From a virus: DNA of 64,000 bases. Shown here in pieces: positions 1-54,647 of the stretch. Positions within the stretch are counted from its first letter, which is position 1. Every line of letters begins with the position of its first letter. The position numbers and the translations under genes were made by a program. The notes below the pieces were generated by a model that was not told the origin of the DNA, searched no databases, and saw only the letters and a program-made list of their open reading frames with translations. The DNA is taken from the IMG/VR virus record IMGVR_UViG_3300028584_001238; one strand, written 5' to 3'.

Positions 1-655
1 TATAGTTTTTAACCAGATCCTCAATACGCCCCATTAAGTTATCAAGGAATTCTTCTGTATTATTGGGGACAGCATTTACATAGAAAGTAATGGCATTATT
101 CATGCCTTGATGATTATCCACTTCGATTTTATTAATAACATAACCTGAGAACATTTTTTCCTGCATTTCATATTCTTTCAACAATTCATAGCAGTATTTG
201 CGAGAATATTGTTCAGTAAAGGCATCAGAGTCGATACGAACTTTGACTTCATCAATCAATGTAGAATTGTCAATTTTATCAACAATAACATCGAATTTTT
301 TGAAAAACTGAGACTTGATTTTAGCTCGAACTTCGGAATCTAATTCGTGACCAGAAAAAATGATATGTGGAAAATTACTGTCGTAAAATGATTTAACACC
401 TGAACACAAGGCATAAGGCTCATCATTATCAGCCCCTTTGAAACAAGTGTTTTTTCTCCACCAAGAGTAGTAAGTGTTTTCAGCCTTTGTTTTTGTTGCA
501 TACGCGGCCATAACATCTTCAACACCATGACTACAATCACCTTCACAAGATACTTTCTTTGCAACATGACTAGAAATATAACCACCAATTGCATGATAAA
601 TCTCACGAATATCTTGATTTGTTTTTACAACGATTTCATAAGTTCTAGTGGTCAT
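1..655 (-). CDS. hypothetical protein, 3' end outside window
   Basis: ATG at 655 with GAGG RBS; frame open to window edge (MTTRTYEIVVKTNQD...); absent from ORF track. Confidence 0.75.
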   Translation of the reverse strand, partial: MTTRTYEIVVKTNQDIREIYHAIGGYISSHVAKKVSCEGDCSHGVEDVMAAYATKTKAENTYYSWWRKNTCFKGADNDEPYALCSGVKSFYDSNFPHIIFSGHELDSEVRAKIKSQFFKKFDVIVDKIDNSTLIDEVKVRIDSDAFTEQYSRKYCYELLKEYEMQEKMFSGYVINKIEVDNHQGMNNAITFYVNAVPNNTEEFLDNLMGRIEDLVKNY

Positions 656-723
656 ATATCTATCCTCAAAATGATAAGTTACTATACCATTCTGAGGACG
701 GATATTCAAGCGTATTTAAGAAT

Positions 724-1068
724 TTAGCCAATGTGAAGAACATCTTTCAAGAAGTCATCAGAAGGCTTGATATTATGAACTTTGATATAGTGAGAAAGAC
801 CATCAGGCCATTTCCAATTCTTGTAAGAAAACTCTGCTGCACCGTTTTCAGCACCACAGCAACGGCAAATAGAAAACCCTTTAAAGTAGACACAAGTGCC
901 TGCTCGGTCTTTATGCCGGTAAATGTCTTCTTCAAGTTTTTTAAGAGCCAAGATTACATCTTCTTTACCTTCAAAAGCGACATCGGAACTGACTGGTTTT
1001 GGAAAGTGTGGTTCACGCTCCGACCACCAGAAGCCTTCAAAACGTTGTGGTTTATTTTTATTTCCCAT
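724..1068 (-). CDS. hypothetical protein, Cys/His motifs (possible Zn binding)
   Basis: GGAG RBS; CRCC...WPDGLSHYIKVH. Confidence 0.7.
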   Translation of the reverse strand: MGNKNKPQRFEGFWWSEREPHFPKPVSSDVAFEGKEDVILALKKLEEDIYRHKDRAGTCVYFKGFSICRCCGAENGAAEFSYKNWKWPDGLSHYIKVHNIKPSDDFLKDVLHIG

Positions 1069-15312: not shown

Positions 15313-16467
15313 TTAATCTTCGTCTACAGGTGCTTCATCATCTGAGTCATCGGTACCAGTGAAGTCACCCAAGTCAACTTGCTCCAAAGACCAGACCTCT
15401 TTCAAACGGTTACGTTCATAGTAATCCAAGTAATCAACTTCTTTACCGCGAGCGGTAGTCATGATGAAAGAGAAATATTGATGACCCAAGTAAGTAGTTG
15501 CCAAGGTTTTGAAATCAACACCTTCATGCTGAGCCAAAATATCTGCAACATCTTTCTTAATACCTTCAATTTCTGCTTTAATCGTATCATTGATGTGATG
15601 GATTTGAGACAAATCAGCGTCTGGTGCATTCAAAGCAACAAATGCAATGTAGTCGTCAATTTTTTCAGACAAAACCAACCGAGCAATGTCACGAATACGG
15701 ACAAAAGTTACCGCATGGTGCAAGTTAACATACCAACGAGTTTTCACTTTAACCATATTACCGTTAGAGAACTGAATAACGTAACCTTCAATACCTTCAA
15801 CAGTGTCCAATGAATGCAACAACTCTTTCAAGTCGAAGCCTTTACCAAACAATGGAGCGTTGACTGGAATATCAAACTCTTTTGCTAATGCTGCGACTTC
15901 ATCGGGCATAAAGTAATCACCAGTAATAGTGTGACGAACATGCAACAAAGTCATTTTTTCTTCATCGTAACGCAAAACGATACGGTTGTTTGGCGAAGTG
16001 TATTCAAAGATAGGTGTAAAATCCAAGGATGCACAATGCTTAATAAAATCTTCGTATTTCTGGTTTGCTTTAACATATGCCAAAGCCGACACAGCCACAT
16101 CTGATTCAAAAGACTTTTTGGATTTTACAAATACTTCACCATGAAAAACACCAGCAGTAATCATGGAACCATCCATCTTATCGAAGACAGCAACCACATC
16201 ATCCCAGTTCAAGTTGTGTGGCAATACTTCTTCACGCTCTGCCAAGTTGAAGAACTTGTGCAAAGGACGGTTAACAATTTTACCATCACGGTCAAAGGTG
16301 ATACCACGGCATTCTTTTTCAAAAGGCGTAGCAAAGGACTCACCGTTGCTGATGTTGTAGCAAAGCACGGTTGCACCGTTAGATTGCTTGTTCACACCGA
16401 TATAGGTTTTACCTGCCAAAGCTGGCAAAATATCATTGATGTGTTCGATTTTTGGAAAAAGGTTCAT
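15313..16467 (-). CDS. rnlA: RNA ligase, T4 Rnl1 family
   Basis: KFFN, motif I KMDGS, FEYTSPNNRIV, EGYV, KVK. Confidence 0.9.
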   Translation of the reverse strand: MNLFPKIEHINDILPALAGKTYIGVNKQSNGATVLCYNISNGESFATPFEKECRGITFDRDGKIVNRPLHKFFNLAEREEVLPHNLNWDDVVAVFDKMDGSMITAGVFHGEVFVKSKKSFESDVAVSALAYVKANQKYEDFIKHCASLDFTPIFEYTSPNNRIVLRYDEEKMTLLHVRHTITGDYFMPDEVAALAKEFDIPVNAPLFGKGFDLKELLHSLDTVEGIEGYVIQFSNGNMVKVKTRWYVNLHHAVTFVRIRDIARLVLSEKIDDYIAFVALNAPDADLSQIHHINDTIKAEIEGIKKDVADILAQHEGVDFKTLATTYLGHQYFSFIMTTARGKEVDYLDYYERNRLKEVWSLEQVDLGDFTGTDDSDDEAPVDED

Positions 16468-29577: not shown

Positions 29578-30663
29578 TCAGTTTAGTTCTGTGCCGCCTT
29601 TACGAGAAAGGTAAGCCGTCGAAACACTTTTCAATACAACACGTCCAATGGTAGAATCTCGACGTTGAACAAGTGGTTCAATTACAACACCCTCACGAAT
29701 GTGGGTTTCCTTACCTGAATACGTTTCAAAGCCATCAGTGTATTTCAACATGACTTCTTTGCTGAATGGCCCCTTGTAAAGCACAGGGACACGCTTCAAG
29801 TTAAACTCAGTCAACAAGGCTTCAAGTTCGTCATCATTAACCGGGAACACACCACTAGCATCAGTGCGGGAACCAAGAAAGACGTTGAACACACGGAAAT
29901 CAAACACACCATTATCCAAACCATACGTCAAATCTTGAACAGCACCAAATGTCTCACCTGAAATGTAAGCATTGGTTTTGTAGCGATCTGCAAGGATAGC
30001 TGTAATCTCGTAAAGATTGAACTTTTTAGCAACACGAATGTAAATGTTATGAGCATTTTGTTCGTTATCACGAAGCACCAAACCTTTGTTGAAGAAACCT
30101 TTGCTGCTCACAAATGAGCGACCATTAACCACATGTGGGATAGGATCTTTGCCATAAACGCTGCCAGCAATAGTGAATGTGCCATGAAGTTTTTCAGTCA
30201 TGGATACAAGCTCACCATCCACCAACACATCAGGGTAACGCTTGACGTTTTCAATGTCAAAGTGGAAAGTGTTTTCAATGCCCACGTTAGAAATCTCACC
30301 ATTCATGGAAGCTGGAATAGGAGCTTCATACTTGATGATACCCAATTCTTCGGCTTTATCGTCACCAATAGCCCAGCCATCACGGGCCTTGAAGCAAAGA
30401 CCTTGACTAAGAACACCACGAAGCATGGAAGGCTTCAAACGGTTTTTCTTGGAACCTGCCAATTTACCAAGGCAACCCACTTCTTCTTGAATGAAATCAG
30501 GAACAATGGCACCTTCTGGAATATAAACAGCCAAGTCACCTGTTTTCAGGTATCCTTTTTGGATAATCGAGAAGAAATCCCCGACGCGAGCCAGTTCAAT
30601 CGCATCAGCGTTAGGATGTGGCTCAACAATGACTGGAAGAACGGTCGCTTTAAACGTAGACAT
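29578..30663 (-). CDS. RNA ligase, DRB0094 family
   Basis: N-terminal HPNADAIE, motif I EKLHGT, GE, REGVV, LKSVS..YL. Confidence 0.9.
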   Translation of the reverse strand: MSTFKATVLPVIVEPHPNADAIELARVGDFFSIIQKGYLKTGDLAVYIPEGAIVPDFIQEEVGCLGKLAGSKKNRLKPSMLRGVLSQGLCFKARDGWAIGDDKAEELGIIKYEAPIPASMNGEISNVGIENTFHFDIENVKRYPDVLVDGELVSMTEKLHGTFTIAGSVYGKDPIPHVVNGRSFVSSKGFFNKGLVLRDNEQNAHNIYIRVAKKFNLYEITAILADRYKTNAYISGETFGAVQDLTYGLDNGVFDFRVFNVFLGSRTDASGVFPVNDDELEALLTEFNLKRVPVLYKGPFSKEVMLKYTDGFETYSGKETHIREGVVIEPLVQRRDSTIGRVVLKSVSTAYLSRKGGTELN

Positions 30664-54079: not shown

Positions 54080-54135
54080 GCAATAACACTCCAAAAAGTT
54101 TAGTTGATTATAGCATAAAACTAAATTAAAGACAA

Positions 54136-54172
54136 TAAAAATGCCAACGTCACATCACTATGAGTTGGCATT
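54136..54172 (-). terminator. terminator of the ncRNA unit
   Basis: ATGCCAAC...GTTGGCAT hairpin then T-run. Confidence 0.65.
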
Positions 54173-54183
54173 TATTTAAAAGT

Positions 54184-54252
54184 TGGCCCACCACAACGGA
54201 GTCGAACCGTTCCCTTTAGCTTTTAGAGGGCCAAGGTCAGCCTTAGTGGCAG
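54184..54252 (-). tRNA. non-canonical tRNA-like RNA, anticodon CUA (amber)
   Basis: acceptor CTGCCAC/GTGGTGG + G-CCA; T-arm AACGG-TTCGACT-CCGTT; loop CT-CTA-AA; minimal D-arm; 69 nt. Confidence 0.7.
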
Positions 54253-54257
54253 ATTTT

Positions 54258-54613
54258 GTTGCGAAAACAATCATAATCATGGTGTGCTATTACGCCAAAA
54301 GAGAATTCAGCCTTACCATTTCTGGGGTGCCTCCTTACTTGACCAAGACCACAACCACGGCAAATTCTTACATTATTGCAAGAACTGGGCGTTTTTGGCT
54401 GAGACGTTTTGATCTGCAAAATCTACTTTAATGTGGATTCGATTTCGACAAACCGTGGCTCACTTGTCACCGATACCTTTAAATGACCGCTAAATCATTT
54501 AAACCCGATGCTTACCATCACTGTATCCCAAACACCTGTGGCAACCGCTCTACTCATTAAAAGATGGCTGCTTTTAAGCCCACTTTCCAAGATTACATCA
54601 TTGCTTTACAACG
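54258..54613 (-). ncRNA. structured RNA with 23S rRNA H43/H44 (L11-binding site) mimic
   Basis: long 5'-3' closing stem; GGCTTAAAAGCAGCCATC and GCGTAATAGC match the 23S GTPase-associated centre. Confidence 0.75.
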
Positions 54614-54618
54614 AGGCC

Positions 54619-54647
54619 ATTATACGACAATTCATGGCCTTTGGCAA
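54619..54647 (-). promoter_or_regulatory. sigma70 promoter of the rRNA-mimic RNA
   Basis: TTGCCA-17-TATAAT; predicted start coincides with the closing stem. Confidence 0.8.

Follow-up and report, generated by a model that had tools for sequence, protein, structure and literature searches.

A shrunken tRNA-derived element behind a 23S rRNA mimic in viral DNA: a possible release tag rather than a decoding tRNA

Directly behind an RNA that imitates part of 23S rRNA, viral DNA encodes a short RNA which resembles a tRNA and seems to carry the amber anticodon CUA, and the question raised by this locus is what such an element does in such a place. The window, by which we mean the whole analysed stretch of 64,000 nucleotides (IMG/VR record IMGVR_UViG_3300028584_001238), had received a first-pass annotation that offered three functions: an amber suppressor, a tRNA decoy working with the mimic, or a processing signal for release of the upstream RNA by RNase P. 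The last of these is the best supported, given a slot shared with ordinary tRNAs, a conserved top half, a compensatory base pair and RNA contigs that end just upstream. Our preferred reading, to which we give about an even chance of being right, sees in the element a shrunken tRNA-derived module which does not decode but tags the mimic RNA for release by a cut of the RNase P type.

The transcription unit lies on the minus strand in the order promoter, mimic, leader, element and hairpin, and the RNA contigs X16 and X20 span both mimic and element. A sigma-70-type promoter (54619..54647; TTGCCA-17-TATAAT, 11/12), with a −10 box invariant in five of five genomes, predicts a +1 at 54612, the position at which an RNA joint in run X15 also starts. 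The mimic of the 23S rRNA helices H43/H44, the uL11 site, occupies 54258..54612 (355 nt) and is held by a long closing stem with 54612:54258 as its outer pair. It contains an H43-like 5′ conserved block (54550..54589), which is where it matches 23S rRNA, and a 3′ conserved block (54281..54333) composed of a family motif and an H44-like end; RNA contigs suggest that the mature mimic runs from 54612 (or about 54607) to 54266. The 5-nt gap that had been reported between closing stem and element was found as described, an A-rich leader AAAAU at 54253..54257 whose −1 nucleotide is U here and varies among relatives, and the RNase P cut would be expected at 54253/54252. The element follows from 54252 to 54184, its 69 nt reading exactly as first written. 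A terminator had been placed behind it, and a hairpin followed by a U-rich tract is indeed predicted by folding at 54131..54176 and is kept in all five genomes, although a strict-pattern terminator scan returned 0 sites.

The top half of the element is that of a canonical tRNA. The 5′ strand of the acceptor (54246..54252; C1 U2 G3 ... C7) pairs with 54188-54194 over 7 bp, including C1-G72, U2.G71 and G3.U70, and its 3′ strand (54184..54194) brings U70, a purine discriminator R73 (G here) and an encoded CCA. The T arm (54195..54211), AACGG-UUCGACU-CCGUU, is canonical as previously claimed and invariant in the five genomes. All features of a canonical top half (7-bp acceptor, 5-bp T stem, T-psi-C loop, NCCA) are thereby present, and the pattern of 7-bp acceptor, T arm and NCCA occurs three times in the window, in two true tRNAs and in the element, and 0 times in 200 shuffles. 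Between these parts lie a collapsed D region (54232..54245), which forms a 4-5-bp hairpin with a CUGA loop in the best fold and is the most variable part, and a central arm (54212..54231) of ambiguous fold that contains CUCUAAA (54228-54222, with CUA at 54226-54224) and is invariant in the five genomes. The cloverleaf described at first is borne out for acceptor, T arm and RCCA, the only canonical portion, but not for the anticodon arm as it was drawn. ARAGORN, proposed at the time as a check, does not call the element, and with a relaxed score it makes inconsistent calls of 92-96 nt, labelling the window copy Pyl but the copies of two near-identical relatives Leu. No Rfam match was called for the element, including at the gathering threshold of RF00005, nor was any found for the mimic, and the folding energy of the element is ordinary (z = −0.28). 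A literature search found no description of element or mimic; large catalogues of motifs published as supplements may affect how novel the two are.

Four IMG/VR records (G001-G004), whose aligned DNA is 75-90% identical to that of the window, carry one copy of the element each. Among these five genomes 4 of its 69 columns vary, through a compensatory change from A6-U67 to G6-C67 (in two of five), a G/A change in the D region (54232, in G002) and the discriminator (G in two, A in three). In the same genomes the variable columns number 3/77 in tRNA-Arg, 14/84 in tRNA-Leu, 8/74 in tRNA-Cys, 12/36 in the promoter and 13/53 in the terminator, and since the element varies like the true tRNA genes and far less than promoter and terminator, it is under selection. 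CUCUAAA is kept in five of five genomes, linkage to the mimic in four of five, and RNA ending just before the element is present, which together argue against the decaying pseudo-tRNA that had been considered from the outset.

The genome in which linkage is lost, G003, is informative. Here the whole mimic is gone while promoter, a short leader with a changed closing-stem C and an intact element remain, the 69 nt being identical to those of G004. The mimic is lost cleanly from its place behind the promoter (L079, 3600-3700), at a TTG repeat that marks the two ends of the closing stem; the state is either a hairpin-driven deletion or one that precedes insertion of the mimic. Variation of another kind is seen in a low-depth DNA contig of run X9, in which three changes (54234, 54235 and 54238) break the AAGG/CCUU stem of the D region. 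A covariance model of the element run over 84 sources found no copy beyond those known, the other matches being ordinary tRNAs at 29.5 bits or less. A pattern scan for the D-region variant of X9 and X16 gave 57 viral loci, with mimic or T arm in none of the 20 distinct contexts listed, all of which look like coding sequence. Two of six matches to a gapped pattern (L083 and L085) were rejected as element copies, being chance matches.

The mimic itself belongs to a widespread family, both conserved blocks of which recur in cultured phages, and what other members carry in the position of the element bears directly on its function. Scans with the 3′ block matched 12 loci in viral sequences and 46 in metagenomes, from which, with duplicates and false hits removed, 28 distinct loci outside the present lineage with both blocks and at least 150 nt of downstream sequence were used to count the contents of the slot. 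ARAGORN finds a tRNA within 55 nt in 10 of the 28, not all of them independent (Met twice, Arg three times, Pro, Glu three times and Ser). Two more, L040 and L048, show a 7-bp acceptor, T arm and RCCA that ARAGORN misses, in a top-half scan whose false-positive rate was 4 of 280 shuffles, bringing the loci with a tRNA or a tRNA top half in the slot to 12/28. At 15/28 neither tRNA nor top half lies downstream, and one more (L032) is probably a false hit. A further genome scan returned 12 loci, none of which passes the both-blocks mimic filter of this count. The survey suggests that a tRNA shape in the slot is common, that its amino-acid identity is free and that it is not required; the mimic can evidently mature without a tag, as 15 of 28 loci have none. 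L040 is an independent case of the same mimic-plus-tRNA-like layout: behind an unrelated mimic, positions 650-763 (+) encode a 114-nt RNA in which acceptor, T arm and ACCA enclose a non-canonical middle. Elsewhere, the mimic of L044 is followed by a tRNA-Ser-like gene with an insert at the anticodon, the counterpart of which in L051 is intact, and that of L078 (5990-6280, +) belongs to a cluster of tRNA genes on a Pseudomonas plasmid of 910 kb, with a tRNA-Arg(CCU) behind it, so the mimic family is not limited to phages.

Expression and ends were assessed in six RNA runs from four studies, which derive from relatives 95-99% alike and were chosen as containing this stretch; the data are assembled contigs of depth 4-13 that carry neither strand nor true ends. 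None of the six locus contigs reaches beyond the predicted +1 at 54612, 7 nt past the −10 box; each stops there or short of it. At the other side, contigs of four runs have their limits at 54264 (X17) and 54270 (X18), with no loose end, at 54266 by a back-joint (X15) and at 54266-54267 by loose letters (X19). The 3′ end suggested by them lies at 54264-54270, 11-17 nt before the product end expected at 54253; most of the relatives' RNA contigs halt 12-18 nt before the element. The contigs of X16 and X20 continue into the element, to 54236 and 54212 respectively, and look precursor-like. The absence of flanking genes from the RNA runs was not used as evidence, since the flanks of the relatives are less than 80% alike and would not map.

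Two of the contigs join the ends of the mimic. That of X15, 350 nt long, has a back-joint from 54266 to 54612 (347 nt), and that of X19, a run of a separate study, has 16 loose letters past 54606, the last 15 of which equal window 54266-54280, and hence a second joint onto the 3′ end at 54266, this time from about 54607. The DNA run X12 reads straight through 54266 and 54612 and X9 through 54266, with a back-joint in neither. A microhomology template switch was considered as the source of the joints and rejected, as it does not fit the letters. The joints possibly stem from circular RNA or from an end-to-end jump of reverse transcriptase, which give identical letters; either way, they mark a discrete mimic RNA without the element. 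Little weight is given to the tail of X16 (depth 4), where 54236 is followed by 45 letters that depart from the window. The 30 of these that were read start as the X9 variant does and then give a shorter central arm that lacks the CUA loop, followed by a stretch resembling a T arm. The tail may come from a divergent copy or be chimeric, and a short motif from this loose end was in none of the loci compared.

How a release tag would work can be outlined from these features. Host RNase P would bind the acceptor/T-arm helix and RCCA and cut before C1 (54252), the upstream product would be trimmed to about 54266, within the weak outer part of the closing stem, and the two ends of the mimic, held by that stem, might then be ligated. 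According to PMC4919922, RNase P pairs with RCCA and prefers U at −1. The parts of the element that are kept are those which RNase P reads, namely the acceptor pair, the T arm and a G or A at position 73, and the tag reading needs no amber decoding; both points argue in its favour. It is weakened by G003, where the element is kept without the mimic, and by the invariance, in five of five genomes, of a central arm that is dispensable for RNase P. Moreover, the RNA falls 13 nt short of the product end predicted for RNase P, and another nuclease could therefore make the 3′ end of the mimic directly.

One may speculate further about the fate of the released RNA. The window encodes two ATP-dependent RNA ligases, a T4 Rnl1-like one at 15313-16467 (−) and an Rnl2/PHA02142-like one at 29578-30663 (−), and G002 has three ligase matches. 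In the extended scheme RNase P would release the mimic, a copy of the uL11/GTPase centre of the ribosome, the 3′ end would be set at 54266 and one of the carrier's own ATP-dependent RNA ligases would seal the ends into a covalently closed circular, nuclease-proof ribosome decoy; a 5′ triphosphate at +1 needs conversion before ligation. Taken as a whole we consider this scheme unlikely. The repeated end-joining makes a circular ribosome decoy directly testable, and the RNA data offer a first clue as to how a widespread family of rRNA mimics is expressed and where its members end.

Comparable arrangements are known. As described in PMC8457004, RNase P frees MALAT1 from the tRNA-like mascRNA as 3′-end processing, and with mascRNA and the menRNA of NEAT1 the present element shares a short tRNA-like module directly 3′ of a larger non-coding RNA, reduced arms with an intact top half and a 5′ RNase P cut that would make the 3′ end of the upstream RNA. 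It differs from the account given there in being part of a bacterial mobile element, in its encoded CCA and in an rRNA mimic closed by an ordinary stem instead of a triple helix, and further in the possible end-joining of the released RNA and in an RNase P step that is presumed here from the sequence. GOLLD and ROOL are likewise large mobile-element RNAs that lie beside or contain tRNA or pseudo-tRNA genes (PMC5737381 and PMC6582537), whereas here a degenerate tRNA part follows on the 3′ side and is excluded from the mature RNA, its partner being a copy of 23S H43/H44. The main text of PMC5737381 contains neither 'rRNA' nor 'L11'. Cleavage of non-tRNA substrates by RNase P, among them phage-induced RNAs, OLE RNA and pre-tmRNA, is covered in PMC4919922. 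The Rfam families of mascRNA/menRNA, GOLLD, ROOL, OLE RNA and tmRNA do not match the element. Large phage RNAs next to tRNAs and vertebrate tRNA-like processing tags are thus already known, and the element is a variation on these; if the release-tag reading is true, it is a bacterial mobile-element counterpart of mascRNA, a tRNA gene cut down to the parts that processing needs.

The main rival is that the element is a standalone small RNA, CCA-bearing, perhaps alanylated through G3.U70, which serves as a non-decoding tRNA decoy beside the uL11-site mimic, processing of the mimic being a by-product; host tRNA nucleases, EF-Tu, RelA or stalled ribosomes would be the candidate targets, and such a role may coexist with that of a tag. 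G003, with element, promoter and terminator intact where the mimic is missing, speaks for this explanation, and the invariant central arm and the presence of G3.U70 in five of five genomes also favour it. In addition, four of four relatives encode a second RNA resembling a tRNA, which is 103-125 nt long and has G3.U70, A73 and CCA, so that odd tRNA-like RNAs are a theme of the carrier, and the two RNA ligases of the window are of tRNA-repair type. G3.U70 had been pointed out as the AlaRS determinant, and it is conserved. The bacterial Ala set comprises A73, G2-C71, G3.U70, G4-C69 and G20, and in one case E. coli AlaRS is blocked by a first pair other than G-C (both from PMC9976931). The element has C1-G72, U2.G71 and C4-G69 in five of five genomes and A73 in just three of five, leaving G3.U70 as the one member of the set present throughout; the G73 noted alongside it in the window is not conserved (G in two, A in three). 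G3.U70 is moreover one transition away from the G3-C70 of the closest tRNA-Arg(UCU), and the D region tolerates three changes in one X9 contig. A decoy is accordingly a tentative and somewhat improbable alternative to the release tag.

An amber suppressor would have to be a working tRNA whose D arm is minimal, in the style of mitochondrial tRNAs, and which places Ala (through G3.U70) or Gln/Lys at UAG. Suppressor tRNAs have precedents in phages, and CUCUAAA fits the consensus of an anticodon loop (Y32 U33 ... A37 A38), is invariant and is flanked by a 5-bp stem UURGC/GCUAA that is fully Watson-Crick in G002. In the lowest-energy cloverleaf of all five genomes, however, the central stem is CCCU/AGGG and CUCUAAA does not appear as a 7-nt loop. 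The anticodon stem first proposed has a pair probability of 0.01-0.02 and lies about 5 kcal/mol above the best fold in every genome (5-6 kcal/mol for the suppressor fold), and the alternative stem UURGC/GCUAA, with a 9-nt loop, is about equally unfavourable. It must be noted that 6 of 75 canonical tRNAs from the loci compared give their true anticodon stem a probability of 0.02 or less, and that in 4 of 75 positions 31 and 39 do not pair, so that the low pair probability weakens the amber fold but does no more.

The coding sequences also speak against suppression. UAG ends 5 of 96 ORFs of the window and 13-26 of 215-263 ORFs in the relatives, and coding cover gains less when UAG is translated than when UGA is. 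Across 2613 ortholog alignments the internal stops comprise 93 TAA, 71 TGA and 23 TAG, and by inspection fall mostly in spurious frames and start extensions. These tests cover the window and four relative fragments (150-190 kb of an element of perhaps more than 1.8 Mb), G001 to base 160000 of 161697, and show neither UAG recoding nor a read-through signal. The discriminator also flips between G and A, the D arm cannot make the standard tertiary contacts, and the X16 contig, at depth 4 and perhaps chimeric, has a central arm without the CUA loop. The CUA tRNAs of large phages and tRNA-Pyl share with the window copy G73 and a CUCUAAA that can be drawn as an anticodon loop, but the element differs from them in lacking a standard D arm, in C1-G72, in its variable discriminator and in a setting where no recoding and no PylS were seen. 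The suppressor suggested by the first-pass annotation is therefore poorly supported and in our judgement improbable, and 'CUA' in a tRNA-like element of a phage need not mean stop-codon recoding.

The origin of the CUA letters may lie in another tRNA. The best non-self matches of the element include the tRNA-Arg(UCU) of the mimic-bearing loci L017 and L042, although one tRNA-Trp ties for the top alignment score. These two are the only ones of 95 tRNAs to share C1-G72 together with U2.G71, and they also share G3 and A73-CCA. Compared with them, the element is 6 nt shorter, its D arm is collapsed and C70 has become U. The arm GUAGC-CUUCUAA-GCUAU of the tRNA-Arg(UCU) corresponds to UURGC-CCUCUAAAA-GCUAA in the element, whose 9-nt loop lacks U33 when read in the Arg register. 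The former becomes the latter by a single change in the loop, the addition of two A's and a further change on each strand of the stem. Suggestive as judged from the letters, descent from a phage-type tRNA-Arg(UCU), by collapse of the D arm and gain of two A's in the anticodon loop, would make CUA an off-register by-product and G3.U70 a single C-to-U transition.

A dead pseudo-tRNA riding the mimic cassette, kept alike by recent recombination, would agree with the failure of ARAGORN and Rfam to recognise the element and with its ordinary folding z of −0.28. Identity is 99% to genomes which are 75% alike and 96% to genomes which are 87-90% alike, suggesting cassette exchange. The compensatory acceptor pair speaks against this explanation, and so do the flanking promoter, leader and terminator, which vary 4-6 times more than the element, a pattern that transfer of the whole cassette would not give. 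We regard it as very improbable.

About as improbable is a shortened tRNA domain of the tmRNA type, acting together with host SmpB in the rescue of stalled ribosomes but having no tag reading frame. The tRNA-like domain of tmRNA is characterised by G3.U70, a T arm, CCA and a dispensable D stem, and the first three are found in the element, the D region of which (...GGCUGAC) is loosely tmRNA-like. The element has C1-G72 where G1-C72 is expected, and G73 in place of A73 in two of five genomes; there is no match to the Rfam tmRNA family (RF00023) at E ≤ 10, in contrast to the second RNA of the relatives, which does match weakly (E 5.6e-4), and SmpB was found in 0 of four fragments, which are incomplete records.

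A pyrrolysine tRNA can practically be dismissed, since CUCUAAA, a single U8, a small D loop (all resembling tRNA-Pyl) and the relaxed ARAGORN label of the window copy stand against C1-G72 in place of G1-C72, a discriminator that is G73 in two of five genomes, a canonical T loop, no Rfam match, no in-frame use of UAG and PylS in 0 of four fragments of 152-193 kb (incomplete records). Its determinants, as given in PMC9976931, are G1-C72 and G73, with A73 or U73 in some species.

The element's carrier may be a giant one. IMG/VR holds provirus cuts of 150-190 kb and classes all four relatives as proviruses, and the locus of G002 recurs on a metagenome contig of 1,859,102 bp (L052), pointing to a very large phage-like element or island. 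Almost all of its genes are of unknown function: 16 of 90 window proteins have any Pfam match, and PHROGs gave two virion-protein matches among 72 of the 235 ORFs of G002.

Other unusual RNAs were observed in these genomes. The second tRNA-like RNA, 103-125 nt long and located in G003 at L160 7897-8021 (+), is also present in G001, G002 and G004; it has G1-C72, G3.U70, A73-CCA and a tmRNA-like 3′ end, its Rfam tmRNA match (E 5.6e-4) is below gathering, and at far below normal tmRNA length it is a candidate minimal tmRNA. Close by, at L160 8160-8233 (+) in G003 and also in G004, lies an odd tRNA gene with C1-G72, G73, its own promoter and an irregular anticodon loop around GUUGUA, which scores 34 bits with the Rfam tRNA model and is missed by ARAGORN. 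Finally, at about 2050-2150 (−) of the window, and in G001, G002 and G003 as well, a promoter-to-terminator RNA was found that has the T loop GGUUCGAACC, an acceptor-like stem, a long central arm and no CCA. A 251-aa ORF overlaps it, and early stops in the relatives indicate that the true start of this ORF is downstream.
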